A stretch of 64,000 bases of DNA from positions 57,734 through 121,733 of the IMG/VR virus record IMGVR_UViG_3300020048_000044; one strand, 5' to 3'. The notes beneath the pieces are model-generated. The model made no database searches, was not told the origin of the DNA, and worked only from the letters and a program-made list of their open reading frames with translations. Both the position numbers and the translations under genes were made by a program. This stretch comes from a virus. This document shows, piece by piece, positions 5,441-21,654 of the stretch (positions within the stretch are counted from its first letter, which is position 1; every line of letters begins with the position of its first letter).

Positions 5441-5513
5441 TATAAAAAAATATAAGGTAGGTTGGAGTATACCTCCCAATATTTTTTGAATATTGTCACG
5501 TCATATCTAATTG
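5441..5513 (-). ncRNA. putative small structured RNA, copy 1 of 3
   Basis: No ORF. Promoter at 5520-5551 (- strand); ATGAC, hairpin, GTATACTC-N5-TACCTTATA-T7. Confidence 0.6.
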
Positions 5514-5699
5514 ACTCTACAAAGATAGAAATAATAATTTAGATATCCTAATAAAAAGTGAATTATTTTACATAGAGTTATTAACAATTAAAATGTTAAT
5601 AAGTATGGTGAAAATAAATGCAAATAAATTTGGTGGTTTGGTTTTTTCTTTATATCTTTGCCTTATCAAATTTAATTAATCAACTTAAAACAACTTATT

Positions 5700-6584
5700 A
5701 TGAAAGCAAAAGCAAATGAAATTTTAGCTAATCACGAATTAGATTTTACAATTGAAAAAGAACAATTAATTGGTGCTGTTAGTGGTAGGGAAACACCATA
5801 TTTTGGATTGTTCAATAACAGTTCAAATGAATGTATAAACACTGTTAAAAAAGGTTATACTGTATCACAAAACATTGATGTAGTAGAATTGGTATTAATG
5901 GGTATTGAGCCATTTGGTGATAAATTAACAGTTCAAAAAGCTGGTAGTTTGAATGGTGGTAGAAAAGTATTTTTACAATTAGCAATTGAAGGAAATGGAA
6001 TTGTAGGTAATGACGTTATTAAACGTTATGTAACTATTATTGATTCAAATGACGGTTCAACTTCATTATCAATTGGAATTGGTGATTTAACAATGAGTTG
6101 TTCAAATCAATTTTTCAAGTTTTATAAACAAGGTGAAGCTAAATTTAGACATTCAGCGAGCCTAACTGAAAAAATCAAAGGTATTCCAAGCCTTATTGAA
6201 TTGGCATTAGGTGAAAGCCTTAAACAAATTGAGTTGTATAAACAATTCGTTTCAACTGATATTACCAAAGACCTTGCAAATCGTATGGTAAAACACGTTT
6301 TAGGTTATGATAGGGAATATACAAGTATGGACGAGTTATCGAAAAAATCTACAAAATCCATTAACATAATGGATAAATTGTATAATCATATTGAACGTGA
6401 AACAGCCGACAAAGGTTTAAATCTTTGGGGGTTGCATTCTGGAGTAACAAGTTACACAACCCACGAAATTTCAGTTCCAAAAAGACATAATGCCCATATT
6501 GAAAGTTCATTGATTGGTTCAGCTTATAAAATGAACAATGACAGTTTAGGGTTTGTTACAAAACGCTTAGCCTTAACAGTTTAA
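5700..6584 (+). CDS. DUF932/DUF945-like (TIGR03299-type) phage/plasmid protein
   Basis: LDFTIEKEQL, GYTVSQN, AGSLNGGRKVFLQL, SNDGSTS, CSNQF, RHS motifs; typical length. Confidence 0.8.
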   Translation: MKAKANEILANHELDFTIEKEQLIGAVSGRETPYFGLFNNSSNECINTVKKGYTVSQNIDVVELVLMGIEPFGDKLTVQKAGSLNGGRKVFLQLAIEGNGIVGNDVIKRYVTIIDSNDGSTSLSIGIGDLTMSCSNQFFKFYKQGEAKFRHSASLTEKIKGIPSLIELALGESLKQIELYKQFVSTDITKDLANRMVKHVLGYDREYTSMDELSKKSTKSINIMDKLYNHIERETADKGLNLWGLHSGVTSYTTHEISVPKRHNAHIESSLIGSAYKMNNDSLGFVTKRLALTV

Positions 6585-6598
6585 AAATAGATGAATAA

Positions 6599-6629
6599 TA
6601 AACCACAATTTATTTGGAATTGTGGTTTT
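6599..6629. terminator. hairpin/T-tract overlapping the -33 box (fused terminator-promoter element)
   Basis: AAAACCACAATT-tatttgg-AATTGTGGTTTT; similar copies at 8255, 9214, 9691, 12344, 13400, 21533; promoterless copy at 22339. Confidence 0.7.
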
Positions 6630-6674
6630 TTATATCTATCTTTGTCAAACAATAATCAACTAAAATAAAACATT

Positions 6675-7046
6675 ATGTCAGAATTTAGAATGGAGTTTGA
6701 AAAATCCAATGGTGGTATTCCATATAAACATTGCACCAAATGTGGTATAAAAGAAGAGGAAACCGTAATGACAAATACACCCGATGGTTGGTTTTGTTGT
6801 GATTGCTACCCACCAACGATGTTATGTAAGGAATCACCAACGGCACACGAAATGGTTAATAAAGTTATTGGTTTATTAAACAATATTAATATTGACGGTG
6901 AAACGATGCAATATATATTAGGACGTGTTGGAATGGAAGACCAAATGTTATCTCAATTGGTTAGGGGTTGTGAGGATAGACAAATAGTTGAGGAACTTTT
7001 GAATGAAAGCGATGAAGCTTGGAGAAATGATTTAAAAAAAAACTAA
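6675..7046 (+). CDS. early protein with Zn-finger-like CxxC pairs
   Basis: CTKC, CCDC; own promoter. Confidence 0.8.
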   Translation: MSEFRMEFEKSNGGIPYKHCTKCGIKEEETVMTNTPDGWFCCDCYPPTMLCKESPTAHEMVNKVIGLLNNINIDGETMQYILGRVGMEDQMLSQLVRGCEDRQIVEELLNESDEAWRNDLKKN

Positions 7047-7116
7047 AAGATATTAGGAATTATGAAAAAAATTCTTTATCTTTGTCGTATAAAATTAATC
7101 TATTAAAAAGAATGTT

Positions 7117-7473
7117 ATGGGAAATTTGAATAATAGTATATCTTTAATTACTGCAAGGGTAAAAAGAGGTGAAGTAAATGAAAAGGCTTTATATGATATT
7201 TTTGCTAGTGATAGCGATTTTAGTCAAAATGAAGATGAGTATCAATATGATACTTTAGATAAGGGTTTTGAAAATGAAGCCGATAGACAAGCAACTGAAA
7301 TTTGGGTTAAATATAAAAATGTTAAAAACGAAAGGGAACGTTTATTTTTAATGATGGACGAAGTTTTTAAAGTTAGTGGTTTTATTGGTAATTCAAGTTA
7401 TTACGGTAACTATTCGCTAGAGATAATTGAAACCGACACTGAATTTATTATTATCATTGGAGTAATTATGTAA
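7117..7473 (+). CDS. hypothetical early protein
   Basis: Own promoter, A-rich leader. Confidence 0.8.
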   Translation: MGNLNNSISLITARVKRGEVNEKALYDIFASDSDFSQNEDEYQYDTLDKGFENEADRQATEIWVKYKNVKNERERLFLMMDEVFKVSGFIGNSSYYGNYSLEIIETDTEFIIIIGVIM

Positions 7474-7541
7474 AAATAAATTTGGTAGTGTGAATTTAAT
7501 TACTTATCTTTGCACTACCAAATTATTAAAACCTTTATATT

Positions 7542-7760
7542 ATGGCAAAAAAACCAACCAATACAGAAATTGAAAATTTCGTAGATACATACGAATTTAC
7601 TGAAAATGAAATTGCAGACGTTGAAGAAATCGAATTTGACGATGAAACGGCAATCAATTTAGGTTATGTTTATTCGACAACTAGAAATTCTTGGTTTAAA
7701 AAGAATAATTCACTTTATACCGAGAGAGAAGAAGAAATTGTAAATTATTTAACCAACTAA
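7542..7760 (+). CDS. acidic hypothetical early protein
   Basis: Own promoter. Confidence 0.8.
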   Translation: MAKKPTNTEIENFVDTYEFTENEIADVEEIEFDDETAINLGYVYSTTRNSWFKKNNSLYTEREEEIVNYLTN

Positions 7761-7772
7761 AAATAAAACGGT

Positions 7773-7922
7773 ATGAAATATTGGCACGTAATTAAAACAA
7801 AAAACTCAATAAAGGTTACACCAAAATTAACAATGGAGTGTAAAGACGTTAAAGGTTCAATAGCTTGTTATCTCACAAGGAGTGGTGCAATTGCTGATTT
7901 GAATACAAGACAATTAAAATAA
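7773..7922 (+). CDS. 49-aa protein (not in ORF track)
   Basis: Flanked by identical 28-nt leader repeats at 7750-7777 and 7920-7947. Confidence 0.6.
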   Translation: MKYWHVIKTKNSIKVTPKLTMECKDVKGSIACYLTRSGAIADLNTRQLK

Positions 7923-7942
7923 CCAACTAAAAATAAAACGGT

Positions 7943-8245
7943 ATGAATGCTGAATTTAAAAACAGACAAATAGCAATTTTCAATGCTGAACAAGTATTAC
8001 ACGTTACAACTGAAAAATTGCTTTTAGATATTTTAAAAGTATTGACAGATGAACAACTAAACGAATTAGACGCTTACCCGTTTAGTGATTTTGAAGAGTT
8101 TCAATCCTACGAAAAGGAATCACAAAATTTTGTAATTTTTGATACTGATATGGATGAAGAAAAAAATGTTGATATTAGCGACCTTTCGCAAGAGCAACAA
8201 AAAGATTTGATTGATACGATTATGGTGCAAATTTTCAACATGTAA
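7943..8245 (+). CDS. acidic hypothetical early protein
   Basis: Conserved leader AACTAAAAATAAAACGGTATG. Confidence 0.8.
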   Translation: MNAEFKNRQIAIFNAEQVLHVTTEKLLLDILKVLTDEQLNELDAYPFSDFEEFQSYEKESQNFVIFDTDMDEEKNVDISDLSQEQQKDLIDTIMVQIFNM

Positions 8246-8329
8246 AATAATTAAAAAAAACCACAAATAAATTTGGATTTGTGGTTTTTTTGTTTTATCT
8301 TTGTGGTATCAAATTTAAAATAGAATAGT

Positions 8330-8785
8330 ATGTATATGTATTTAGCCAATGAATTTAGCAATTTGAATAAGGTAGTCCCTAATATTCATTATGGAGGTTG
8401 TTGTTTATTTGCCGAAGAGGTTTTCACCTTATTAAAAAAGCTTAAGAAAAAACCTAGAGTTATCATATTAACCACAACCCCAAAAACAGTTAAACACTAT
8501 GTCAAGTATTTTCCAAAGGTTAGTGAAACAATAACAGATATTGGACACGCTGTTATTTATGTAGATGGTGTTTTTATTGATAATAACGGCATTTATAATA
8601 AATTGACTGATGTTCTACATTATGAAAACGAAAAACGTTATAAACGTTTAAGAATAAGCAAAAAAGAATTATCGTTTATCAATGAGAATATGGAAAATTG
8701 GAATCCTAGATTTGAAAGAGAAAAATTAAGTGTTGTAAAAAATACTTTAAAAAACATTGAAAATTATTTGGTATCTTCAAAATAA
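8330..8785 (+). CDS. hypothetical early protein
   Basis: GGCC..FA and HAV motifs, possibly papain/transglutaminase-like (unverified); own promoter. Confidence 0.75.
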   Translation: MYMYLANEFSNLNKVVPNIHYGGCCLFAEEVFTLLKKLKKKPRVIILTTTPKTVKHYVKYFPKVSETITDIGHAVIYVDGVFIDNNGIYNKLTDVLHYENEKRYKRLRISKKELSFINENMENWNPRFEREKLSVVKNTLKNIENYLVSSK

Positions 8786-8823
8786 TTTCTTATCTTTGTC
8801 AAACAAATTTAAACCAATTAAAA

Positions 8824-9204
8824 ATGCAAGCAAGCGATTTAATACCAAAAAATAAATTACCACTTGACCAAGTTGAGGGTAAGTTAAAAGAATTAGGTTT
8901 ATTAGTTAATGATAAACCAATATCTTATACCAAATTTAAAAAAGAATATGCCGATGTTCATTGTTATACGGGCAGACTTTGGGGTAAACGTGTTAAACAA
9001 TATGTTATTTACGTTGGAACACGTGAAAATAAGTTTGGATTTTATCCACCACTAGCACCAAAAGAAGAAAGTTTAAAAATGGCTTATCAATATTATTTAG
9101 ATACGGCAACAAGCGATTTTAAAATGGACTTTACTTCTGGATTGGTTATGTGGGGTAATTGTGGTATTCCATTGACAAGCAGACCTTTAAGATGTGATTT
9201 ATAA
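8824..9204 (+). CDS. hypothetical early protein
   Basis: Own promoter. Confidence 0.8.
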   Translation: MQASDLIPKNKLPLDQVEGKLKELGLLVNDKPISYTKFKKEYADVHCYTGRLWGKRVKQYVIYVGTRENKFGFYPPLAPKEESLKMAYQYYLDTATSDFKMDFTSGLVMWGNCGIPLTSRPLRCDL

Positions 9205-9293
9205 AATAAATAAAAAAAACTACAATTTTATTAGGAATTGTAGTTTTTTTGTTTTATCTTTGTCAAACAATAATCAACTAAAAATAAAACGGT

Positions 9294-9677
9294 ATGAATA
9301 AGTCAAACATTATTAGCGAAAAATTAAAACAACTTGAAAAAGAAAGTTGTGATTTGTTTTCTATCTTAAGAAACAAAAGACCAATATATGATTTTCTAGG
9401 TAAATTGGATTTTGACAAAGAGGGTTTAACGACTATTCCTTTTTTGGTAGATTTAGCCGATGAACAAGAAGTTTTAGAAGAGTTACCAATCGTTGAAATG
9501 AGAAGTGATTTAGACGGTGGAACTTTCGATGTTCACGTTTTGAGGGTAGATGAAAACGGTTTAACGTGTGTTAATTACAATGACCATACAGTTATTAATA
9601 CCTACGGTTTTAATGATTTATCAAACATAGATTATCGTTTAATCGTATTGAATGAAATGTATGAAATTGATAACTAA
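9294..9677 (+). CDS. hypothetical early protein
   Basis: Own promoter. Confidence 0.8.
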   Translation: MNKSNIISEKLKQLEKESCDLFSILRNKRPIYDFLGKLDFDKEGLTTIPFLVDLADEQEVLEELPIVEMRSDLDGGTFDVHVLRVDENGLTCVNYNDHTVINTYGFNDLSNIDYRLIVLNEMYEIDN

Positions 9678-9773
9678 AAAATAATTATAAAAAAACTACA
9701 ATTTTATTAGGAATTGTGGTTTTTTTGTTTTATCTTTGTAGTATCAAATTAATCAACTAAAAACTTTTCAATT

Positions 9774-10175
9774 ATGCACGTAGATTTAAAAAATATCAAA
9801 GGTTCATTAGAAGATATGAACAATTTATTTGATGATGCTGAAAGATTCAGTGTTAGAAATTACAAACCAAATGAAAAAAATCCTAGTAATTTTGATATTA
9901 CTATTCGATGTGGTGATGAACTTGCAAAGATAATCAAAACTAAAAAAAGTCTTAAATCTTTGATTAAGATTTCAAAAAATGTTAAGGTAGTTGTTAAAAA
10001 ATCGTATAAGATTTGGGTTGTTATTGAAGAGCAAACAGAATTTAGCGATGGTTCGGAAGAGTTAAAAGATTTAGAAGACAACACACAAAGTTGTGGGTAT
10101 TTTGATACGCTAGAAGAAGCTGAAAGGGCATTAGCTGAAATAAATGCTAATTATGAGGGAGATTTTAGAAAATAA
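9774..10175 (+). CDS. hypothetical early protein
   Basis: Own promoter. Confidence 0.8.
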   Translation: MHVDLKNIKGSLEDMNNLFDDAERFSVRNYKPNEKNPSNFDITIRCGDELAKIIKTKKSLKSLIKISKNVKVVVKKSYKIWVVIEEQTEFSDGSEELKDLEDNTQSCGYFDTLEEAERALAEINANYEGDFRK

Positions 10176-10240
10176 ATTTGGAATTATAATTTTTTATTCT
10201 TATCTTTGTCTTATCAATTAATCAACTAAAACCAATTACA

Positions 10241-10825
10241 ATGAATACTTTTGAAAACGATAATTTTAAATTAACTATTGATTTGGATTCTGACCCAATA
10301 AACCCTAGAGGAAACGATAATATGTTTACAATATATTGTGACCATAAACGCTACGATTTAGGTGATAAGAAAGATGTTAAACCACCTAGTTATTGTTATT
10401 GTTGGGAACAAGTAAAAGCATTTTTAATAAGAGAAAAAAATGCAGTTATTATTGAACCGATTTATATGTATGACCATAGTGGTATTACAATATCAACTAA
10501 ACCGTTTAGTTGTAAATGGGATTCGGGGCAAATAGGTTTTATTTATGTTAGCCGTGAAAAATTATTAGAAGAGTATAATTGTAAACGTATTACAAAAAAG
10601 ATACGTGAAACAGCGATGCAAGTTTTAGAAGCTGAAATAAAAGAATACGACCAATATTTAACGGGTGATGTTTATTTCTTTGAATTGCTAGATAAACGAA
10701 CCAATGAAGAGGATTCGTGTTACGGATTTTTTGGTAGTAACATTTTTGAAAATGGAATGTCTGATTATTTAAGTGATGAATGTATTGAAAGCCTTGAATT
10801 AAAAAAATCATATAAAACAGTATAA
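10241..10825 (+). CDS. conserved phage/MGE hypothetical protein
   Basis: YMYDHSGITIS..WDSGQIGFIY..EYDQYLTGDVY, recalled as a recurring phage motif; function unknown. Confidence 0.8.
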   Translation: MNTFENDNFKLTIDLDSDPINPRGNDNMFTIYCDHKRYDLGDKKDVKPPSYCYCWEQVKAFLIREKNAVIIEPIYMYDHSGITISTKPFSCKWDSGQIGFIYVSREKLLEEYNCKRITKKIRETAMQVLEAEIKEYDQYLTGDVYFFELLDKRTNEEDSCYGFFGSNIFENGMSDYLSDECIESLELKKSYKTV

Positions 10826-10827
10826 AA

Positions 10828-11049
10828 ATGGCAAGTATAAAAGATTGTTGTATTCAACGCATAGAAGCTGATATAAGAGCTTTAAAAAATAGAACTAAGC
10901 AACCACAAGAACTAACTGCTGAACGTATGTTAGATAAGCTTAAAACGATTGATTTGGCGTGGTATGATGAGATGGGAACTAAGTTTTATAATGCCCTTGA
11001 TGAATATCGAAGGAAAGAAAAAAATAAACAAGAAAAAGTTTGGAATTAA
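10828..11049 (+). CDS. hypothetical early protein
   Basis: Coupled to the previous gene. Confidence 0.7.
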   Translation: MASIKDCCIQRIEADIRALKNRTKQPQELTAERMLDKLKTIDLAWYDEMGTKFYNALDEYRRKEKNKQEKVWN

Positions 11050-11095
11050 CAAATATTATTCTTATCTTTGTCAAACAATTTAAAACTAGAAACAA

Positions 11096-11485
11096 ATGGA
11101 AAAGTTTAGAATATTCAGAGAGGGAAATAAGGTTAATATAGCACAGTGTTATTTAACAGATGAAGTAGGTATTAATGCACATGCAACCCCAACGGCAACA
11201 ATATTATCAGAGCCAAAGGATAATGAAGAGTTGGTTTGTGTTCTTTATGAAAATGGATTAATTGACCACGTGCCACAATACATACTTGAAAATATTGAGA
11301 GTAAGGAATTATTTGAAAATCAAATTGATTTGATGTGTGAGATACAAGGCGAATTAAATATTAACATTGTTAATTGTGGTAATTGTGGGGGCGTTTTCCT
11401 TCATAAATTAAATGAAACAGAAATAAAATGCCCTTATTGTTGTTTTAATTCAGAGCCTTGCGATTTTCCCGATTTTATTAGTTAA
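11096..11485 (+). CDS. early protein with C-terminal zinc ribbon
   Basis: CGNCG...CPYC; own promoter. Confidence 0.8.
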   Translation: MEKFRIFREGNKVNIAQCYLTDEVGINAHATPTATILSEPKDNEELVCVLYENGLIDHVPQYILENIESKELFENQIDLMCEIQGELNINIVNCGNCGGVFLHKLNETEIKCPYCCFNSEPCDFPDFIS

Positions 11486-11528
11486 AAATATACTTTAGTT
11501 GGTTAAGTTCGGAGTGAAACCGAACACT

Positions 11529-11556
11529 AAAGGACTTCTTTTTGAAGTCCTTTTTT
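11529..11556 (+). terminator. intrinsic terminator
   Basis: AAAGGACTTC-ttttt-GAAGTCCTTT plus T-run, preceded by a GTTCGG/CCGAAC hairpin. Confidence 0.75.
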
Positions 11557-11567
11557 ATTATACCTAT

Positions 11568-11632
11568 AAAAAAAATATAAGGTAAGGTGGAGTATACTTT
11601 CCGTCTATGTTGGTAGTCGTAACGTCATATTG
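11568..11632 (-). ncRNA. putative small structured RNA, copy 2 of 3
   Basis: Promoter at 11639-11670 (- strand); ATGAC, hairpin, GTATACTC-N5-TACCTTATA-T8. Confidence 0.6.
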
Positions 11633-11792
11633 ACAAGACAAAGATAGAAATAAAAAACCACAATTCCAAATTTATTTGATATTATTTTATATGAAGTTAT
11701 TAACAATTAAAATATTAATAAAATGTTGATAAAAACTTGACATTGTGGAATTTATTATGTATCTTTGTAGAATAAATTTAAAATTATAAGAT

Positions 11793-12341
11793 ATGAAACT
11801 TTACAGATTAAACAAAAGAACATTATTATTTGAGGAGGTTAATAATCGATTAATGTATTTTAGTGTTGGATTATTTTTATTTGTCAGTGCATTAACAACG
11901 TATTTGATTTTAAATAATGTTAATCAAATTAAGTTGATAAGTGGAGAAACAAAAACGCTTATATTAAATGAGCAACATAGTTTCACCAAAGAAAAATTCA
12001 AAGCAACTTTATTAGAATTAAATTTAAAATATCCGCATATAGTATATGCACAAGCTGTTTTAGAAAGTGGTTCGTTTACTAGCAAATTATTTAAAGAAAA
12101 TAATAACGCTTTTGGAATGAAAGTTGCAACACAAAGACCAACAACAAATAAAGGGGCTGAAAACGGATACGCTTATTATAATAATTATTTTGATTGTATT
12201 GTAGATTATGCGTTCTATCAGTCAAAATTTTTATCAAAGATAACGAGTGAATCCGAATATTTTAATTATCTAAAACAGAATTATGCAGAAGACCCGACAT
12301 ATATAGATAAGTTAAAAGAAATAATCGAAAAAAATAAATAA
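11793..12341 (+). CDS. membrane-anchored glucosaminidase-domain (GH73-like) peptidoglycan hydrolase
   Basis: N-terminal TM; VYAQAVLESG..SKL...NNAFGMK; YAEDPTY motif. Confidence 0.8.
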   Translation: MKLYRLNKRTLLFEEVNNRLMYFSVGLFLFVSALTTYLILNNVNQIKLISGETKTLILNEQHSFTKEKFKATLLELNLKYPHIVYAQAVLESGSFTSKLFKENNNAFGMKVATQRPTTNKGAENGYAYYNNYFDCIVDYAFYQSKFLSKITSESEYFNYLKQNYAEDPTYIDKLKEIIEKNK

Positions 12342-12415
12342 AAAAAAAACACAAATTATTAGGATTTGTGGTTTTTTTGTTTTATCTTTGTAGTATCAAA
12401 TTAAAACATATACCA

Positions 12416-12544
12416 ATGAGAACTTTAACTGTATCAACAAAGACCTTTACTGAAATGTTATCGGGATTAATCCAATCGGGTGTAACATTTGAAGCAGAAG
12501 AAAAAAACGGTGAAATAGTAATAACATTTACGGGAGGATATTAA
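12416..12544 (+). CDS. 42-aa protein (not in ORF track)
   Basis: Directly after promoter 12383; ends ITFTGGY. Confidence 0.65.
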   Translation: MRTLTVSTKTFTEMLSGLIQSGVTFEAEEKNGEIVITFTGGY

Positions 12545-12546
12545 TT

Positions 12547-12816
12547 ATGGCACGAACACAATTATACATTATTTGGATTGAGGGTTTTGAATACAAGACT
12601 GGCGAAAAGGTTAATAATTTAACCGACCACGGATTTAGTTATACTACAAAAATGACTGAAAGCCTACGTATCAAACAAGATGATATACTACAAATGAAAC
12701 ACTATATGAAAAGGCACGGTATCGCTAAATGGGTTATTGATAGTAGTGAAACATTTATCAAAACAAGCTATGCACCAAAAGGAACAATATTAAATTCAAA
12801 AAAAATTGCATTTTAA
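12547..12816 (+). CDS. hypothetical early protein
   Basis: ORF in cassette. Confidence 0.75.
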   Translation: MARTQLYIIWIEGFEYKTGEKVNNLTDHGFSYTTKMTESLRIKQDDILQMKHYMKRHGIAKWVIDSSETFIKTSYAPKGTILNSKKIAF

Positions 12817-12883
12817 TTTGGTAGTGTCATTTTTTATTATTATCTTTGTCGTATCAAATTAATCAACTAAAAAAAATTACACA

Positions 12884-14196: not shown

Positions 14197-14253
14197 AATA
14201 TAGTTGATGTGTTAAATTGATAATTAGTCATTGGTGGTTCTTTGACTAGTGGA

Positions 14254-14288
14254 ATAAGGTAAGATAGAAATATTTTACCTTTTTTTTG
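14254..14288 (+). terminator. intrinsic terminator with GAAA tetraloop
   Basis: AAGGTAAGATA-gaaa-TATTTTACCTT plus T-run. Confidence 0.65.
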
Positions 14289-14353
14289 TGTTTTTATTTG
14301 GAATTGTAAAATATTATTCTTATCTTTGTCTTATCAATTTAAAACGAACTATT

Positions 14354-14587
14354 ATGTTAATATTACACACATTTGAAAAATTAGGTTATACAGCTTTTAT
14401 CGGCTCTAATGGTAATAAATTTATATTTAATATTCAACCTAGCGATGAACCAAAATGTTGTGGTGGTTATCCAAACTTAAATTATATTTGTAGAGTTAAA
14501 GGGTTGCTACTTGATGAAAGGAAAATATTAATAGATAAGGCTGAAAAAATAATGGGTAAAACTATTAAAGAAAATTTGGAATTGTAA
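14354..14587 (+). CDS. hypothetical early protein
   Basis: ATG 14354 lies downstream of promoter 14321. Confidence 0.7.
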   Translation: MLILHTFEKLGYTAFIGSNGNKFIFNIQPSDEPKCCGGYPNLNYICRVKGLLLDERKILIDKAEKIMGKTIKENLEL

Positions 14588-14636
14588 AATATTTGTTTTA
14601 TCTTTGTCAAACAATAATCAACTAAAACTTTATATT

Positions 14637-15101
14637 ATGCGTATTAAAAAAATAATCCTAACCAAAGAAGATATAAAAAATTTAATGCTAAACAAAACTA
14701 TTAGTATTGAACGTGAAGATGTTTGGAATGTGCCAAAATCCAGTATTGTTTATGGTGTTGGTTGTAATGGTATGTTTGATAAGGTTGATTATCGTTGGGT
14801 TTATGGTGATACTGACCAATATATTACAGATAAAAAAAATGTTGGTAGACGTGCCGAAGACTATCCAAATAACGAAATAAGTTCACAAAGTGGGTGTTTA
14901 TGGTGGGATTTTAACAAACACTATTCACCATTTAATAAAGTAGGTGAAACTGTTATCAATGGCAAAAAAAATCCTATCAAATTTAAAATAGAAAACATAA
15001 TCATTGATAAACTAACTGATGTTGAATGTATTGATAGTTATAAGCAAAAACGTAGGTATCACAAAATAATATTTAAAATTGATATAAAAATAATTGAATA
15101 A
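14637..15101 (+). CDS. hypothetical early protein
   Basis: ATG 14637; the track's TTG 14604 is the -7 box. Confidence 0.8.
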   Translation: MRIKKIILTKEDIKNLMLNKTISIEREDVWNVPKSSIVYGVGCNGMFDKVDYRWVYGDTDQYITDKKNVGRRAEDYPNNEISSQSGCLWWDFNKHYSPFNKVGETVINGKKNPIKFKIENIIIDKLTDVECIDSYKQKRRYHKIIFKIDIKIIE

Positions 15102-15166
15102 AAGTTTGGAATTGTCATTTATTTGTTTTATCTTTGTCAAACAATAATCATTTAAAACTTTATACA

Positions 15167-15436
15167 ATGGGAATAGTAACTGATATGTTAATGGCAAAAG
15201 ACCAAAATCCAAAAAATCGTTTTATGATTGGGGATAATCTATATGAATTTGAAACGATGCAACCCGAAATTAAAGAGGGTGATATTTTCACTACTGAAAT
15301 TAAAATGTTTGTTTTAACTGCTGATTGTATTGATGAAACTTTAAAGGGTGTTAAATTTATTGAAGACTTTGGTCACGATATGATTTGCCCATATAAAAAA
15401 GCAATTAAATTAAGATTCATAAAAACAATAAAATAA
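15167..15436 (+). CDS. hypothetical early protein
   Basis: ATG 15167; the track's TTG 15134 is the -7 box. Confidence 0.8.
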   Translation: MGIVTDMLMAKDQNPKNRFMIGDNLYEFETMQPEIKEGDIFTTEIKMFVLTADCIDETLKGVKFIEDFGHDMICPYKKAIKLRFIKTIK

Positions 15437-15495
15437 ATTTGGAATTGTCATTTATTATGTTTATCTTTGTCTTATTAATTTAAAACTTGTCAATT

Positions 15496-15876
15496 ATGGT
15501 ATATGAAATAAGAACATACAATTTAATAGGCACAACACTTTATACATATAAAGAAATGCCTAATCTTATTGAAGTTAAACGCAATGGAAATTTTATATTC
15601 GTTGATAAAGATACTGATGAAGTACCATTTAGACCAATGAATTGGAGTTATTCAACTGAAAAGCCTTTAGGTGCTATTAATAGTAGAGTGGAATTTTTAC
15701 CATATATTGCCGATGTTACAGAAGACCTACCAAGTCATTGTAAATTTGAACCAAAAACATATAAGAAATGTTTATTAATGGCTGAAACACATGGTAGTTG
15801 TTTACAATTTTACCATGAAGAAAGTAAAGAAGTTTTAAGAATAGCTTTAAATTCACATACATATAAACCCGTTTAA
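15496..15876 (+). CDS. hypothetical early protein
   Basis: Own promoter. Confidence 0.75.
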   Translation: MVYEIRTYNLIGTTLYTYKEMPNLIEVKRNGNFIFVDKDTDEVPFRPMNWSYSTEKPLGAINSRVEFLPYIADVTEDLPSHCKFEPKTYKKCLLMAETHGSCLQFYHEESKEVLRIALNSHTYKPV

Positions 15877-15877
15877 A

Positions 15878-16093
15878 ATGGACTATACAAAAGTAACACA
15901 TACAATCGAGGGTTATTTAGTTAAGGACTTAAGATTTAAACCAGTTGATAATATCATTGTCGGGTTATGTAAAGACCCTATACACCCGATTGATTTACAT
16001 AATGGATTCGTGGCGATGCAATGGACAAGACAAGGCAAACCGTTAAGGATAAATAAAGGTAGAACAGATTTAATATTAAACTTCAATGAATAA
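15878..16093 (+). CDS. hypothetical early protein
   Basis: Coupled ORF. Confidence 0.75.
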   Translation: MDYTKVTHTIEGYLVKDLRFKPVDNIIVGLCKDPIHPIDLHNGFVAMQWTRQGKPLRINKGRTDLILNFNE

Positions 16094-16268
16094 AGAAATA
16101 GAATTTTCTGATGAAATTGATTTAGCACCTATTGGTGTTATTTTATGGAAATCTACATTCTTTAAACCCGTTAAAGGAATTTATTTGGATTTGGAAGAGG
16201 GTAGTGACAAACATCTCGATGCAATACTTGACGGAACACTTGAAAATTATTTAAAGTTTTTTGAATAA
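16086..16268 (+). CDS. hypothetical early protein
   Basis: Coupled ORF. Confidence 0.65.
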   Translation: MNKEIEFSDEIDLAPIGVILWKSTFFKPVKGIYLDLEEGSDKHLDAILDGTLENYLKFFE

Positions 16269-16327
16269 TTATTTGGTATTGTCATTTATTTATATTATCT
16301 TTGTCTTATCAAATTAAACTAAACTAT

Positions 16328-16771
16328 ATGAAAATAGATATTACACCAATTATCGAACTTGGCGAGGGAACAAACAGAATAGCAATTGATATGAGAAATA
16401 TTAGTGGTTTATATGTTTTCAGACTTGCAAACGGAAAAGATTATACAACCCTATTCAGTCCTAAAGAACTTGAAGAATTTCAACCAAGTAAGAACGTTTC
16501 TGAAATGATTAAAGAATGGGAAGACAATATCAAAAGAAGACACGAAACGTGTGTTAAATGTATTGAAACTGGGTTACACCATACAAATACAACAATACAT
16601 AAAGTAATGAAAAATATTTCATTGCCTAATGGACAAATAATAGAAATGCCAACGGGTGAAACAGAAATAAGACCCGTAGTATTAAGAAAAGATTGGATTG
16701 ATTCATATAAAAATGAAGCTAGAGAATTGGCTGAACAATTTGGTAAAATAAGTTTCATAAAAATTTGTTAA
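16328..16771 (+). CDS. hypothetical early protein
   Basis: ATG 16328; the track's TTG 16301 is the -7 box. Confidence 0.8.
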   Translation: MKIDITPIIELGEGTNRIAIDMRNISGLYVFRLANGKDYTTLFSPKELEEFQPSKNVSEMIKEWEDNIKRRHETCVKCIETGLHHTNTTIHKVMKNISLPNGQIIEMPTGETEIRPVVLRKDWIDSYKNEARELAEQFGKISFIKIC

Positions 16772-16818
16772 TCTCAATGATTTGTATTATCTTTGTTAAA
16801 CAATTAAAATAAACGATT

Positions 16819-17046
16819 ATGAGTGATAAAATAAGAATAACTGATTTTAATTTTGTGTTTAGTGGATATGGACATTATAAAGTAACGTATGTTAATCCAT
16901 TAAATAGTAAATCATATTATTGCACAACTTCAAATATGCAATTAATTGATTTAACAAAAAATGCTGAACACCCTAAAAGAATACATTTAGAACAGTTAAA
17001 AAAATTGTGTAAAAATAATTTTAAACAACTTGGTTACAAATGGTAA
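16819..17046 (+). CDS. hypothetical early protein
   Basis: Own promoter. Confidence 0.8.
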   Translation: MSDKIRITDFNFVFSGYGHYKVTYVNPLNSKSYYCTTSNMQLIDLTKNAEHPKRIHLEQLKKLCKNNFKQLGYKW

Positions 17047-17117
17047 AATAAGTTGAATAAAATTTGTTAATCTCAATATAAATTCTTATCTTTGTCAAAC
17101 AATTAAATTAAACGATT

Positions 17118-17303
17118 ATGGGTAAAGAAAAATTAACTATCAATATTAAAATAAGTGGTAGTGGAACGCCAAATGAAGTAATTAAATCATTAGAGGGTTT
17201 AATCGAATCAATAAAAGAAACCAATAAGGGCAAAGATAAAATTGCTATTTTTGATGGTGCTGAATGGGAAGACGAAACTTTAATAACCGAAATAAATTGT
17301 TAG
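17118..17303 (+). CDS. hypothetical early protein
   Basis: Own promoter. Confidence 0.75.
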   Translation: MGKEKLTINIKISGSGTPNEVIKSLEGLIESIKETNKGKDKIAIFDGAEWEDETLITEINC

Positions 17304-17306
17304 ATT

Positions 17307-17453
17307 ATGGTAGACTATTTTAAAGAAAATAGAATTTCAGATACACATTCACAACCACTCGAATATAAAGACGGGAAACAAAAAAGGCGTGAACGTAGAG
17401 CCAAAAAACGCAAGGCAAAAGAATTAATGAATTACGTAATTAATAACTCTTAA
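17307..17453 (+). CDS. 48-aa basic protein (not in ORF track)
   Basis: K/R-rich segment KQKRRERRAKKRKAK. Confidence 0.55.
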   Translation: MVDYFKENRISDTHSQPLEYKDGKQKRRERRAKKRKAKELMNYVINNS

Positions 17454-17457
17454 ACCT

Positions 17458-17673
17458 ATGGAAATTAAAATTATAAATAGGAAAAAAAATAAAAGTCTTT
17501 ATTTTTGTGATTATAATCCTTTGTTAGACGAAGCTATTAATAATTTCAAATCAGCAAAAACCGTAAAGGTAATAAATGGTATTTGTTATATTAGTTTTGT
17601 TTCACTTGGTTATTTCACTGAAATTTTATCTAAAAATAATATAAGTTTCACAATAATAACAACTTTAAATTAA
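17458..17673 (+). CDS. hypothetical early protein
   Basis: ORF in run. Confidence 0.65.
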   Translation: MEIKIINRKKNKSLYFCDYNPLLDEAINNFKSAKTVKVINGICYISFVSLGYFTEILSKNNISFTIITTLN

Positions 17674-17679
17674 TAACTT

Positions 17680-17874
17680 ATGTATTCTGAAATATATTAT
17701 AAACAAATGCAAAATTGGGCATTTACAAAAAATGGTGGTGAATATCCACAATATTCAATACACGGATTGAGATATAGAAGTGAATATACATTAAAACAAG
17801 TATCACAAATGAAAATAGGAGATACGATTGTTGTTAATGGTTCGCAAATAAAACGTATAAAAGATAGAGAATAA
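17680..17874 (+). CDS. hypothetical early protein
   Basis: ORF in run. Confidence 0.7.
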   Translation: MYSEIYYKQMQNWAFTKNGGEYPQYSIHGLRYRSEYTLKQVSQMKIGDTIVVNGSQIKRIKDRE

Positions 17875-17910
17875 TTTGCTTTTCTTAATATAATTTCGTA
17901 CCTTTGTATT

Positions 17911-18180
17911 ATGGAATTTATATTATTAGAAGTTAATTCACCAAGTTGGAATTATATATGGGATTTTGTTGAAAATCATCCAATAAATGACGGTATTGAA
18001 TTACCAAAGTCTGCTTTAAATAATGGTTATCAATGGGAATATATGGGCAGTTATAAACAAGGTAATAATGTTATTAGTAAAATAATACATAAATCACACC
18101 CGAAAACCCAAGAACTATACACTATCAATATTTCACACGAAATAACACAAGAACAAATAACTAAATCAATTAAAATATAA
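17911..18180 (+). CDS. hypothetical early protein
   Basis: Own promoter (TACCTTTG 17899); near-leaderless. Confidence 0.75.
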   Translation: MEFILLEVNSPSWNYIWDFVENHPINDGIELPKSALNNGYQWEYMGSYKQGNNVISKIIHKSHPKTQELYTINISHEITQEQITKSIKI

Positions 18181-18186
18181 AACACT

Positions 18187-18372
18187 ATGAAATTCTTAGG
18201 ACTTTTTTCTTTTATTATCTTTATCCTTTGCCTAGTAGGTGAAGTGAAATGTTGCTACAAAGCATATAATTGCAATTGGGAACCAATTGGTAAGGCTGAG
18301 GTAATTTACACGGCTTCAGCTTGTTGTGGTTTAGGTTCAATTGTCGGTTGGTTTAATATCGAAGATAAATAA
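18187..18372 (+). CDS. small membrane protein
   Basis: Two hydrophobic segments around CNWEPIGKAEV. Confidence 0.7.
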   Translation: MKFLGLFSFIIFILCLVGEVKCCYKAYNCNWEPIGKAEVIYTASACCGLGSIVGWFNIEDK

Positions 18373-18433
18373 AAATAATTGAAAATAAATTTGGTAGTGT
18401 CATTTATTATTACTACCTTTGTATTGTTAAAAT

Positions 18434-18538
18434 AATTAACCCAAAGTAACGGATACCAAACCGCCATTCGCCACTCGTTGCACGTATGCAAAACTCGGCA
18501 CTCAAGGCATTATAAATGGAACGTGAAATGGGTTAATT
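18434..18538 (+). ncRNA. candidate structured ncRNA
   Basis: Begins just after promoter 18414; 10-bp closing stem AATTAACCCA/TGGGTTAATT; GC-enriched; internal hairpins. Confidence 0.5.
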
Positions 18539-18545
18539 TTAAAGA

Positions 18546-18619
18546 AGCTTATTAGTTCAATTGGTAGAACGCTAGAGCCGAAACTCTGGATGTTACGGGT
18601 TCGAATCCCGTATAAGTTT
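18546..18619 (+). tRNA. tRNA-like element with non-canonical 8-nt anticodon loop (GCCGAAAC); identity undetermined
   Basis: Acceptor AGCTTAT/ATAAGTT, D arm GTTC-AATTGGTA-GAAC, anticodon stem CTAGA/TCTGG, T arm ACGGG-TTCGAAT-CCCGT; no U33 and no encoded CCA. Confidence 0.8.
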
Positions 18620-18665
18620 CAACAAATGTTTTTTCATTGCATTTGTTATTCTGTATTTTAATGTT

Positions 18666-18698
18666 AAAAACCCCATCTAGCTAATGGGGTTTTTTTTA
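18666..18698 (+). terminator. intrinsic terminator closing the RNA unit
   Basis: AAAACCCCAT-ctagcta-ATGGGGTTTT plus T-run. Confidence 0.8.
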
Positions 18699-18863
18699 TT
18701 GCCCTATGTACACAAATGTGTATATGCACCTCGCATTTTAGGTCGTGGCTGATAGTTTGTCTATCTCACGGGAGAAAGTGTCTTAGAACGCATTAAAATA
18801 AGTCAGTGATATATGTTTGAGGTGGTGGAAACATACGGACATAAAAAAACCCCTATTAAGGGG

Positions 18864-19157
18864 TTAAAATTCTTTAACAAGTGTATAATCTTTATGTGTT
18901 TTAAAACGCTCACTCCATTCTCTAGGTTCGTCTAGTATGGTCATACCACAAATACTTTTCATATCCTCAATAGTATAAGATATTTCTAAACCAAAACGAT
19001 TGAAGTAATGTGTTGAAAATAAAACGGGAATCATACCAACACCATAAACATACTTTTGTAAATGAAATAAACGTAAATGTGTAGCACCCAATTTTTTCGC
19101 TTCTAAATCATAATTAGATTTAGTTTCATTTTCTAACAATAATTTTCTAGTTGCCAT
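18864..19157 (-). CDS. hypothetical protein
   Basis: Part of the leftward operon from promoter 20261. Confidence 0.75.
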   Translation of the reverse strand: MATRKLLLENETKSNYDLEAKKLGATHLRLFHLQKYVYGVGMIPVLFSTHYFNRFGLEISYTIEDMKSICGMTILDEPREWSERFKTHKDYTLVKEF

Positions 19158-19167
19158 ATATTAAAAA

Positions 19168-19335
19168 TTAATTACGTGTATAAATTAATCCATCAAATTT
19201 GCATTTAAGACGTTTTTTAATTGAACCGTCTTTTTTCAAATAATCGGTTGCTTCAAAGTCTTTGTAATGGGTTGCACCCTCGCCAAATTTAATTTCGCTT
19301 TGTGTTGGTTTGCGTGAATATTCTAATTTTTTCAT
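19168..19335 (-). CDS. 55-aa phage protein (not in ORF track)
   Basis: MKKLEYSRKPTQSEIKFGEGATHYKDF...DGLIYTRN. Confidence 0.7.
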   Translation of the reverse strand: MKKLEYSRKPTQSEIKFGEGATHYKDFEATDYLKKDGSIKKRLKCKFDGLIYTRN

Positions 19336-19477
19336 AATAAGGTTTTTTAATTAACTTTTAATAGTGCATTTAATTTGCCCGTTTTCGTTACGAATATTAA
19401 TATTTGAAGTTGGTATATTGTTTTTTAATTTACCAATATTTTGTAAATGACAAACTAATATATTAGTTATATCCAAT

Positions 19478-19825
19478 TTAAGAAACGATTATACATTCCT
19501 CATCGTAATCATTAGTTGTAAACTCAATACACGATGATTTTTTAATCATTTCTATTGCTTTTGCTATATTTTTTGAGTGTTCAATAGCCATTTTCTTTTT
19601 TTCTAATTCAATTCCAGAATAATAATCTTTCCACGCTTTCCTGTCTTTTGAACACTCATAGCAGAATAAATCATTATAATCATCTTCATTCCCTCTTTTT
19701 GATTCATAATGTTCGACAATTAAATAATATCCTTTTATTTCTTTCTTACACGTTTTACAAATCATAGAACCGCACTTGCACGATTCTGAATTTGTTATTT
19801 GAGTTGATGTTCCGTATTTTCCCAT
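19478..19825 (-). CDS. Zn-finger-like hypothetical protein
   Basis: CxC..CxxC...CxxC. Confidence 0.75.
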   Translation of the reverse strand: MGKYGTSTQITNSESCKCGSMICKTCKKEIKGYYLIVEHYESKRGNEDDYNDLFCYECSKDRKAWKDYYSGIELEKKKMAIEHSKNIAKAIEMIKKSSCIEFTTNDYDEECIIVS

Positions 19826-19842
19826 AATTAAATAAAAACTGG

Positions 19843-19972
19843 CTATAACCAGTGGTATAGTTAATTGCCGTGTTTGTACTAATTTGAAGCGTTACCACCC
19901 GCTTGTAATTCTGTGTATTTTGATATGGAAGTAGCCCGCATTAGGCAACTAACCATACCACCAACGTTATTT
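19843..19972. repeat. attC-like 130-bp imperfect hairpin
   Basis: CTATAAC...GTTATTT outer cores; 19-nt inner arms AGTGGTATAGTTAATTGCC / GGCAACTAACCATACCACC. Confidence 0.55.
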
Positions 19973-20017
19973 CACTTTGTTCTAATTCTATTGTTATTGA
20001 TTCCTTCATATAGGTTT

Positions 20018-20227
20018 TTATTTAGTTAGTTTAGTATATGCAAAGATATTGAATGATAATATAGAAACACAAATACCAATATAAAGCATTGGGATTGCGT
20101 GTAAAGGTGTTTCTTTTTGAAACGATACAATGAGAGCAGCTAATAAGATTAAACCACTCAGACCACTTGAAACGGCTAAATAAACCATAGCTACAAATTC
20201 AAAGATGTTTTTGATTACTTTTTTCAT
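20018..20227 (-). CDS. small two-TM membrane protein
   Basis: Two hydrophobic helices; promoter at 20261 (- strand). Confidence 0.75.
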   Translation of the reverse strand: MKKVIKNIFEFVAMVYLAVSSGLSGLILLAALIVSFQKETPLHAIPMLYIGICVSILSFNIFAYTKLTK

Positions 20228-20446
20228 ATCAGTTTGTTTTTAGTTGATTAATTGATAAGGCAAAGATAGATATAATATTTTACAATTCCAAACTTTTTAT
20301 TAAAATAATTTATTTTATTTTTAAATTGGTTGAATATCAATGTTTTAAAAAATAAATGAAAAAAAGTTGCCCAGGAATTTGGTAATTACAAAAACATTTT
20401 CTATCTTTGCCCTATCAATTTAATTAACCAACTAAAAAACCTTATT

Positions 20447-21265
20447 ATGAAAACATTAATTAACGAAACAGTATTAGCAAATTTTGAAACAACAACAAAA
20501 GAAGTATTAGCTAAAAAATTAAATGTATCAGTAAGAAGTATTGTAGCTACATTTTCATCACTAAAAAGACGTAAATTAATACCAACAAATAAACATTTAT
20601 TAAGTAGTTTAACTATTGAAACTCCAAAAATTGAAATTAAAGCAAAAGAAAAATTTCAAAATGTTAAAGGTGAAAAAAAACAAGTTGCTAGAGATTTAAT
20701 GGTTAAATCAATTGTTCAAAGTGAAATTTCAAAAGGAACAATTTTAACACTGCCTTTTATACATTGTAAAATTGAACAACAATTGATTAACATTGTAGGT
20801 AAAAAATACAACTTTTTAGGATGCGAAAACGACCCAATTGTTTATAATCAAATGCTTATGACAATTGCACAAAATAACCTACCAATTAGCACCCATAAAG
20901 GCAATATAAAAGATAAAATAAATATTGCAAATGAAAATGAATACTCACATTTAATATTAGATTATTGCGGTCAACTAGGAACAACACACGAAGAGATTAA
21001 AACAGCAATTGAAAATAATATTGTTCAAGTTGGGGGCGTTATTGCAATAACATTAAATAAAAGAATAACTCCAAATACAGAATTTATTTATGAATTAATG
21101 GAAAAATTAAATCCACGAACAAAAGAAGACGAGGATACAAGGTGTGAACACGCTTTAAGAACTTTTATAAACCGTATCGGTGGGTTAAATTATGCTATTG
21201 AATCAGTTTTAAATTATCACGATACTACAAGTATGATTTTAATGATAGTTAGACGAATAAATTAA
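20447..21265 (+). CDS. HTH plus SAM-dependent methyltransferase-like fold protein
   Basis: N-terminal LAKKLNVSVRSI HTH-like segment; C-terminal ILTLP..LGCEND..HLILDYCG resembles Rossmann MTase motifs. Confidence 0.45.
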   Translation: MKTLINETVLANFETTTKEVLAKKLNVSVRSIVATFSSLKRRKLIPTNKHLLSSLTIETPKIEIKAKEKFQNVKGEKKQVARDLMVKSIVQSEISKGTILTLPFIHCKIEQQLINIVGKKYNFLGCENDPIVYNQMLMTIAQNNLPISTHKGNIKDKINIANENEYSHLILDYCGQLGTTHEEIKTAIENNIVQVGGVIAITLNKRITPNTEFIYELMEKLNPRTKEDEDTRCEHALRTFINRIGGLNYAIESVLNYHDTTSMILMIVRRIN

Positions 21266-21359
21266 TTTTAAAAATAAATGACAATTTATTTGGAATTGTC
21301 ATTTATATTTTCTATCTTTGCCTTATCAATTTAAAACAAACCAACTAAAAAACCTTATT

Positions 21360-21527
21360 ATGATTGCTTTAATTAATACCTCAATCAACTACAAAGCAGA
21401 AGCCGAAAAAATTTCAGCTACATTCAATTATTATCAATGGTTAATAGATGCCAAAAAAGAATGCCGAATAGATTTAACCCTAATCGAATTGTGGAAAAAA
21501 ATAACCGTTAATTTACCACAAAAATAA
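21360..21527 (+). CDS. hypothetical early protein
   Basis: ATG 21360; the track's TTG 21318 is the -7 box. Confidence 0.65.
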   Translation: MIALINTSINYKAEAEKISATFNYYQWLIDAKKECRIDLTLIELWKKITVNLPQK

Positions 21528-21587
21528 TTTGAAAAAAAACCACAATTTATTTGGAATTGTGGTTTTTTTGTTTTATCTTTGTTGTGT

Positions 21588-21654
21588 TGATAATGACAAC
21601 GGGCTGAGCTGAAAACTTAGAAGAGTAGACTCGCTAGTACCTTATATTTTTTTT
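21588..21654 (+). ncRNA. putative small structured RNA, copy 3 of 3
   Basis: Promoter at 21550-21581; ATGAC, hairpin CTGAG/CTTAG, GTAGACTC-N5-TACCTTATA-T8; no ORF. Confidence 0.6.

Follow-up and report, generated by a model that had tools for sequence, protein, structure and literature searches.

A family of putative structured RNA genes, each behind its own early-type promoter, in phages of Bacteroidota

RESULTS

Three putative RNA cassettes in an early-type promoter array

We analyzed a 64,000-nt stretch of viral DNA (the window; positions 57,734 to 121,733 of the IMG/VR record IMGVR_UViG_3300020048_000044), in which three copies of a short structured RNA gene had been proposed from the letters alone (the original prediction). 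The source record is a contig of 121.7 kb, rated 34% complete, that encodes a T4-type portal, a Gp23-type capsid protein, a large terminase, a thymidylate synthase and a ClpB-like ATPase. Between 4 and 24 kb the window carries an array of ~40 small gene cassettes, each with a stereotyped Bacteroidota promoter: TATCTTTG occurs 43 times in the window versus 5.6 expected. Three of these cassettes hold the RNA where the others hold an open reading frame (ORF). The early-type setting that had been assumed for the RNA genes is thus that of an early-type promoter array in a T4-like phage.

Reading of the sequence placed the three copies at the positions and on the strands originally proposed (Table 1). 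A promoter of the form TT(T/A)G-N20-TATCTTTG precedes every copy and a U-tract ends it, as had been described; likewise present are the 5′ hairpin (P1), a second hairpin whose sequence varies (P2) and the conserved order of GTA(T/G)ACTC, exactly 5 nt, TACCTTATA and T7–8. The copies were said to lack an ORF, and their only ATG frames, which start at the ATG inside the 5′ hairpin, are 2–7 codons long. The length of ~75 nt has to be revised, the transcript being nearer 65–70 nt. The exact box GTAKACTC-N5-TACCTTATA is found 3 times in the window compared with 0.38 expected; with three mismatches allowed there are 4 matches, a number that 0 of 100 shuffles attained. The whole 121.7-kb record holds these three copies only, which are dispersed as single units 6–10 kb apart and not arranged in tandem.

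Table 1. Coordinates, in the window, of the RNA copies, their promoters and adjoining features
Feature	Position	Strand	Remarks
Promoter of copy 1	5520..5551	-	TTAG 5551-5548, 20 nt, TATCTTTG 5527-5520
RNA copy 1, subtype A	5444..5519	-	P1 GUCA 5515-5512 / UGAC 5503-5500
RNA copy 1, P2	5495-5489 / 5483-5477	-	CAAUAUU / AAUAUUG; GGAG junction after P2
RNA copy 1, 3′ part	5472-5451; 5450-5444	-	GUAUACUCCAACCUACCUUAUA; T7
Promoter of copy 2	11639..11670	-	TTTG 11670-11667, 20 nt, TATCTTTG 11646-11639
RNA copy 2, subtype A	11568..11638	-	P1 GUCA 11634-11631 / UGAC 11627-11624
RNA copy 2, P2	11619-11614 / 11607-11602	-	CGaCUA / UAGaCG; GAAA junction after P2
RNA copy 2, 3′ part	11597-11576; 11575-11568	-	GUAUACUCCACCUUACCUUAUA; T8
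Promoter of copy 3	21550..21581	+	TTTG 21550-21553, 20 nt, TATCTTTG 21574-21581
RNA copy 3, subtype B	21582..21654	+	P1 GUUG 21586-21589 / CAAC 21597-21600; GGG 21601-21603
RNA copy 3, P2	21604-21608 / 21616-21620	+	CUGAG / CUUAG; AAGA junction after P2
RNA copy 3, 3′ part	21625-21646; 21647-21654	+	GUAGACUCGCUAGUACCUUAUA; T8
AU-rich hairpin directly 3′ of copy 3	21653..21677	+	UUAUUUAGAUAAAUUAUAAAUAA; stem-loop of the next promoter cassette
41-nt block between the divergent promoters of copy 1 and DUF932	5562..5602		Recurs at 11681-11721, 90% identical, upstream of copy 2
GP88-family gene	4620..5261	+	PF17338, E 7e-20; short form, 213 aa, CxxCxxCxxxC; convergent with copy 1
DUF932 gene	5700..6584	+	PF06067, E 2.5e-18; TIGR03299-like; divergent from copy 1

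A phage-borne RNA family

A scan of IMG/VR with the pattern GTANACTC-N5-TACCTTATA yielded 61 viral loci; ~50 of them show the same promoter and layout and the remainder are chance matches within genes. A covariance-model search had been suggested as a check on the original prediction. The model (R1), built from six in-register cores, gave 94 matches in ~40 phage records, more divergent copies included, and the 88 distinct copies constitute an RNA family in phages. On window copies 1, 2 and 3 R1 scored 24 bits (E 0.002), 20.6 bits (E 0.018) and 61.2 bits (E 1e-13), respectively. Copies 1 and 2 belong to a minority subtype with GUKAC before P2, GGAG or GAAA after it and GUAUACUCC; the subtype of copy 3 is the majority form of the family.

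In 36 of 37 related viral records we found 1–9 copies, clustered in zones of 10–30 kb; complete genomes of 288 and 340 kb contain 8 and 5 copies, respectively. The family spans T4-like giants, a cultivable Tenacibaculum phage and partial records of ~9–27 kb with a Terminase_3 gene, which CheckV rates 24–77% complete. BLAST of the window against GenBank phages gave no match. The RNA of a relative, however, shares a 26-nt match with the cultured Tenacibaculum phage Larrie (ON950054), where the RNA lies in an unannotated gap and is antisense to all of its neighbours.

R1 found no match in 150 other genomes of the host class (the class of one match in a metagenome-assembled bin). A scan of 185,579 species, each represented by one genome, returned eight loci, all of them in metagenome-assembled bins: the phage-type promoter and the RNA architecture are present at six, and two, in high-GC genomes and without the promoter, are doubtful. 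The RNA family is phage-borne, belongs to phages of Bacteroidota and is not a host gene (150 host-class genomes sampled).

The comparison with Rfam that had been proposed came out in favour of novelty: at the gathering threshold of Rfam 15 the window gave a tRNA only and no match to any RNA copy. Permissive scans (E up to 10) of copy 3 and of two copies from L016 returned sub-threshold noise, the best score being 19.8 bits against a cut-off of 40, and none of the CRISPR-DR families of Rfam rose above noise. ARAGORN called no tRNA at the three RNA loci, and full-text searches of the literature brought up nothing relevant on the motif or on an RNA of this kind. Rfam 15 holds no such RNA, and the family is uncatalogued.

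Two loci in other records are described here for their surroundings. The region of Larrie at 18.9–20.4 kb (L065) includes a stretch of ~1.1 kb without annotated coding sequence that holds the second of its RNA copies (~19417–19462, the other being located at ~18763–18839); the deposited annotation has no RNA feature there, and further GTAGACTCC and GGAGTCTAC words occur near this copy in both orientations. A partial record of 26.6 kb (G018, CheckV 77% complete; L028:3500-3700) has the RNA between the large terminase gene and GP88, beside four CCCCTACTATGTTTAAGAG and two CAAGGTACTGGG iteron-like repeats, which could mark a packaging or replication site.

Covariation of the central helix

Since single-sequence folds of the window copies are unexceptional, the case for structure rests on covariation among relatives. 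Compensatory stems had been claimed from three copies; among the 88 distinct sequences, P2 does covary. All five modelled pairs show changes in both partners (142 cells), pairing holds in 89% of cells and the observed covariation score was reached by none of 500 shuffles. When the partner was slid by one column as a control, pairing fell to 16–38%. We counted 53 G-U/U-G cells versus 2 A-C/C-A cells: the helix thus folds as RNA and on the promoter strand only, as the 53 G-U cells would be mismatches on the opposite strand or in a cruciform of duplex DNA. P2 usually combines an inner stem with an internal loop and an outer CUG/CAG or UC/GA part, and its end always lies four purines ahead of GUA. 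No part of the RNA is as constant as RAGA-GUAGACUCC; the two sides of a conceivable GGG:CUCC pairing, the GGG ahead of P2 and the loop CUCC, are both invariant. P1 is common but optional: a stem of at least 4 bp is present in 37 of 52 relatives, with a mean z of −0.9. The architecture is therefore an optional P1, A(C/A)GGG, the covarying P2 of free sequence, four purines, the invariant GUAGACUCC and a 3′ hairpin (P3).

In P3, GUAG pairs with CUAY, and only wobble-compatible changes are found (CUAU, CUGC, CUGU, GUGG). Divergent copies rebuild the hairpin with a shifted or more distant 3′ strand: with the tail CACGUCUAUA or CACGCCUAUA it re-forms as UAGAC/GUCUA or GUAG/CUAU. Some copies have an extra hairpin inside the P3 loop. 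P3 is extendable to AGRGUAG/CUACCUU, three bases ahead of the U-tract, and in this form can be predicted to serve as a terminator stem. Among 74 distinct promoter-preceded copies an adjacent T-run follows in 33; the other 41 run on to a separate terminator or to the AU-rich stem-loop of the next cassette, a motif found 3′ of such T-run-less copies in other phages as well.

Invariant junction and loop nucleotides between covarying helices, in ~50 nt overall, have the classic look of a small aptamer. A ligand-binding RNA would be either a riboswitch-like aptamer that controls its own terminator P3, in keeping with the 33 copies whose 3′ helix doubles as a terminator stem, or a sponge for a small molecule or signalling nucleotide. 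However, most copies control no downstream gene, the 41 copies without adjacent T-run do not share the terminator arrangement, no anti-terminator pairing is conserved and the gene context suggests no ligand, which makes this explanation highly improbable.

Several other likenesses were considered and rejected. Pairing of GGG with the CCUU tail looks compensatory in two variants, and CUACAAUAAA or CUACGAUAAA tails break it. Some P2 loops resemble CU-NNN-AA of an anticodon arm, but loop length and sequence vary widely and neither ARAGORN nor the tRNA model of Rfam lends support to a tRNA mimic. The resemblances of some P2 sequences to 16S rRNA (GACGGG...CACAAG..GGUGG) and of GACAA loops to P22 boxB apply to subsets of copies only and are no family feature.

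The original reading as a new structured family of phage small RNAs (sRNAs) holds, given the covariation, the lack of an Rfam match and the own promoters. Judged from sequence, the units are predicted to be independently promoted, ORF-less structured RNA genes of ~55–70 nt that form a widespread phage family, each probably read from its own host-type (Bacteroidota sigma-A) early promoter.

Searches for pairing partners and mimicked sequences

A scaffold with a variable guide had also been considered at the outset. The longest perfect complements of the RNAs in the 121-kb record of the phage measure 11–12 nt, the same as for shuffled RNAs, which does not support this idea; the variable hairpins are probably no guides against the DNA of the phage itself. 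The proposal that UACCUUAUA is a free, single-stranded seed has likewise become doubtful: UAC and CCUU more plausibly form the 3′ strand of P3 (AGRGUAG/CUACCUU), and the UACCUUAUA tail is the least conserved part in divergent copies. The exact 12-nt complement of the invariant block (AGAGUAGACUCC) is present in 6 of 201 host-class genomes and is no commoner than a control word; its rarity argues against a universal host pairing partner such as rRNA or tRNA. Words resembling TACCTTATA are not enriched in the window (33 on both strands versus 33.9 expected).

These results bear on a riboregulator that would base-pair in trans with host or phage mRNAs through the loop ACUCCNNC, the purine junction or the CCUUAUA tail, in the manner of FopS and GibS in Bacteroides. 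The RNA units do have their own promoter and terminator, and Bacteroidota are known to have multicopy sRNA families that combine a conserved seed with a terminator hairpin (FopS, PMC11697453). Against this stand the rarity of the AGAGUAGACUCC complement, the word count in the window and the lack of any above-chance complement in the phage record, tests whose scope is longer matches than seeds of 6–8 nt; we consider such a riboregulator quite unlikely.

In the RNA sense, the invariant 12-mer occurs three times in the 201 sampled host-class genomes, once on a phage-like contig, and is never arrayed; in either orientation it is present in 6 of the 201. Being rare and never arrayed, it argues against mimicry of a common CRISPR repeat. 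A defence mimic would imitate a CRISPR repeat or a tracrRNA, as a decoy of the RNA anti-CRISPR kind, or would offer a defence RNase a decoy substrate. There is precedent in solitary repeat units that are driven by phage promoters and block Cas proteins (PMC10651486), and the family is early-type, multicopy, phage-only and placed among accessory early genes. The silence of R1 in the 150 genomes and of the CRISPR-DR families nevertheless points the same way as the 12-mer, and we hold this explanation to be very unlikely.

Pairing having found no target while the junction and loop are invariant and the helices vary, recognition by a protein or a ligand is favoured. Type III antitoxins (ToxI-like) or pseudo-ToxI consist of tandem repeats of ~36 nt, usually beside an endoribonuclease toxin gene. 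We rejected a ToxI-like antitoxin array: the copies are dispersed instead of tandem, and their neighbours are DUF932, GP88 and a gene with a glucosaminidase domain.

Neighbouring genes

Copy 1 lies between a GP88-type gene and a DUF932 gene. In the related records, an RNA copy lies within 600 nt of 14 of the 18 DUF932 genes and of 9 of the 18 GP88 genes, compared with ~1.9 expected in either case (P ~1e-5, by statistics that leave out phage relatedness and the clustering of the elements in one hyperplastic zone); within 800 nt the number for GP88 is 12 of 18. Adjacency is also seen in records with one or two RNA copies: a 299-kb record (G015) has its single RNA 381 nt from its single GP88 gene, and in another with two copies (G005) the distance is 206 nt from one copy to DUF932 and 150 nt from the other to GP88. 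Usually the RNA gene is found just past the DUF932 stop and convergent with it, often with a second copy upstream.

The GP88 family (PF17338; L010:803-1588 and relatives) has at least 7,900 matches, the top 120 at 71–100% identity. A structure model of GP88 computed with an alignment reached a mean predicted local distance difference test (pLDDT) score of 86 compared with 36 for the single-sequence fold. Its best 21 structural neighbours are nearly all radical S-adenosylmethionine (SAM) enzymes, QueE, NifB, PFL activase, viperin, LIAS, TYW1 and MiaB among them, at Z scores of only 4.7–6.3 (best 6.3, to QueE). Enzymes of the radical SAM superfamily share a partial TIM barrel and a three-cysteine 4Fe-4S site after strand 1. 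GP88 has a near-invariant Cys-x6-Cys-x3-Cys after the first strand, with the spacing x6/x3 and not the canonical x3/x2. Searches of the PDB with GP88 gave no match by sequence and nothing below E 0.02 with Foldseek, and we found no published function in the literature. As a lead, the model suggests that GP88 may be a radical-SAM-like barrel with a cysteine triad. For DUF932, profile searches against the PDB gave no match, and the ESM Atlas returned only DUF932 and DUF3871 clusters and no structure.

The GP88-type ORF of the window covers profile positions 18–163 of 230. Past its stop, in another frame, 5264–5326 reads KCGKECSYCITKKNVCFIQH with a CxxxCxxC motif; the two may represent a frameshifted or split gene, or a chance occurrence in AT-rich DNA.

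Other features of the window

Promoter families of 19 copies carry a CCACAAT/ATTGTGG hairpin over the −33 box, and this hairpin spans the −33 box of the copy 3 promoter (the type of promoter-early stem-loop (PeSL) cassettes). Across the −33 box of many early cassettes between 4000 and 24000 we noted a terminator-like hairpin AAAAAACCACAAT...ATTGTGGTTTTTT. A second type of stem-loop, the AU-rich palindrome TTATTTAGAATAATTCTAAATAA, is located just ahead of promoters at 4162–4186, 21653–21677, 23236–23260 and 23963–23987. The cassette array of the window is the counterpart, with Bacteroidota promoters, of the PeSL cassettes of T4-type coliphages. The 41-nt block of Table 1 contains an internal palindrome (TTAACAATTAA) and lies upstream of copies 1 and 2 only, between divergent promoters; it could be an operator common to the two divergent promoter pairs.

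Four neighbour genes have a near-identical leader and start AACCAACTAAAAAACCTTATTATGA (20423–20460, 21336–21373, 21742–21779 and 23325–23362) and similar N-termini (MKTLI, MIALI, MKNLI and MKNV), and form a small paralogous family that flanks copy 3. The idea of the RNA as a mimic of early mRNA leaders (CCAAC...CCUUAUUAUG) was dropped, the likeness being confined to one paralogous gene family of the window. The single tRNA of the window (~18546–18620, + strand) scores 52.6 bits in Rfam, and its anticodon is left unnamed by ARAGORN; visual inspection suggests an anticodon arm CUAGA/UCUGG whose loop, GCCGAAAC, is 8 nt long. It has a leader of ~110 nt after a standard early promoter at ~18390–18420. 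Further downstream the window encodes a leucine-rich-repeat protein of 486 aa (34459–35919, + strand) and a full-length ClpB/ClpA-type double AAA+ ATPase of 838 aa (41500–44016, − strand), neither of which, to our knowledge, would be expected in a T4-like phage.

DISCUSSION

We tentatively propose that the family represents a putative early and abundant RNA that acts in trans and is bound by a protein. Protein binding fits best because the RNA is phage-only, early-type and present at high dosage, with an invariant junction and loop between helices of free sequence and no detectable pairing target. The recognition surface would be the invariant P2/P3 junction together with the ACUCC loop; P1 and P2 would provide the scaffold, and P3 followed by the U-tract or by a separate terminator would end the transcript. 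The partner could be a conserved host factor that is titrated by the RNA as a decoy or sponge, or the product of phage genes that often adjoin it (DUF932, GP88).

Several observations weigh against this proposal. Single-sequence folds of the window copies are no more stable than usual (z = −2.3, 0.0 and +0.9 for copies 1, 2 and 3 compared with shuffled sequences), a simple terminator scan calls no terminator at P3 and the U-tract, and the adjacency statistics have the simplifications named above. Larrie carries the RNA in the absence of both DUF932 and GP88, and the complete genome G010 is without GP88, so that a phage-encoded partner cannot be obligatory. The orientation of the copies belongs here as well. 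In a simple check of the 74 promoter-preceded copies, with the longest non-overlapping ORFs of at least 70 aa taken as flanking ORFs, 72 copies are intergenic; in 40 copies both flanking ORFs run antisense to the RNA, compared with only 15 co-directional copies. Furthermore, a match to the motif of a facing promoter follows the core in 11 of the 74, at ~42 nt in 8 and at 76–114 nt in 3. The facing-promoter matches were inspected as sequence in four loci next to DUF932: the next mRNA leader there would be antisense and fully complementary to the RNA. The orientation bias and the facing promoters fit a role in cis at least as well.

Acting in cis, the units would be punctuation, a promoter and terminator cassette set against early transcription that works by interference or as cis-antisense on the read-through or leaders of adjoining genes, chiefly DUF932, GP88 and the gene that follows them; the fold would then serve mainly stability and termination. 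The commonest geometry, convergent and just downstream of DUF932, is in line with this, as is the resemblance of the window between 4 and 24 kb to the promoter/stem-loop cassette arrays of T4-type phages (PeSLs, PMC2839356). Yet an insulator needs neither a 9–12-nt block that is identical across phages sharing almost nothing else nor a covarying P2, and 15 copies are co-directional. The window copies, moreover, overlap no coding region, gaps of 180 and 83 nt separating the ends of copies 1 and 2, respectively, from the coding region upstream; DUF932 is served by a promoter of its own, which lies beyond copy 1. On balance we regard a function in cis alone as unlikely.

From the gene neighbourhoods one may also propose, with considerable doubt, that the RNA belongs with DUF932 and the radical-SAM-like GP88 in a single accessory module of phages of Bacteroidota. 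It would then be the bound partner, the substrate or a guide-less cofactor of the DUF932 or GP88 protein, and extra copies would raise its dose. The genes for tracrRNA, omega-RNA, msr and ToxI, which sit beside the genes of their proteins, would be analogous.

Few non-coding RNAs of phages are known, and almost none for phages of Bacteroidota, a dominant phylum in oceans, lakes and guts. The RNA family described here covaries in textbook fashion, has an invariant core, reaches nine copies in a genome and is placed behind strong early promoters. Its faithful upkeep across such different phages probably means that the RNA encounters a conserved component of the host or of a mobile phage module. 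The linkage to DUF932 and GP88 offers a concrete way into two very common genes of unassigned role; if the module exists as proposed, it would give the first functional handle on DUF932, a common orphan family of phages, plasmids and integrative and conjugative elements. Larrie and its Tenacibaculum host make the question accessible at the bench.

Comparison with known systems

The OOP RNA of phage lambda, one of several short antisense RNAs of phages, overlaps the 3′ end of cII and is encoded by a single copy. Like OOP, the RNA described here is ~70–80 nt or somewhat less in length, has its own promoter, runs against its flanking genes and ends at an intrinsic terminator; unlike OOP, its window copies overlap no coding region, it is multicopy and its copies have a common invariant core.

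FopS and GibS are multicopy paralogous sRNAs of Bacteroides, FopS with 14 copies, and are bound by RbpB (Ruttiger et al. 2025, PMC11697453); according to its authors the FopS consensus has been deposited in Rfam (PMC11697453). They share with the phage RNA the multiple copies, the occurrence in Bacteroidota, the sigma-A-type promoters and the terminator hairpins; RbpB binding is a feature of FopS and GibS. FopS is host-encoded and has its R1 seed in a single-stranded 5′ end, whereas the phage RNA has a 5′ hairpin and a conserved 3′ part, no host copies were found for it in the genomes sampled, and it has no match to any family of Rfam 15.

RNA anti-CRISPRs (Racrs) are solitary repeat units that phages carry behind a promoter and that block Cas proteins (Camara-Wilpert et al. 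2023, PMC10651486). The RNA family resembles them as a short, phage-borne and individually promoted non-coding RNA that needs no adjacent ORF, binding of a host protein being the feature of the Racrs. Racrs are defined by their likeness to CRISPR repeats; the invariant block of the phage RNA, in contrast, was never repeat-like in the 201 host-class genomes sampled, and the RNA has a three-hairpin architecture of its own.

T4-type phages carry PeSL cassettes in their hyperplastic regions (Arbiol et al. 2010, PMC2839356). Here, too, we find a hyperplastic early region of a T4-like phage, as seen from its portal, capsid protein and terminase, with strong host-type promoters (the 43 TATCTTTG sites), stem-loop terminators and many dispersed copies. 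PeSL copies flank small accessory genes, and the ordinary gene promoters of the window are of the same type. PeSLs are, however, regulatory DNA ahead of an ORF, in which conservation is limited to the promoter and a generic stem-loop, whereas the RNA units drive no ORF and their transcribed part combines an invariant block of 9–12 nt with a covarying helix across unrelated phages.

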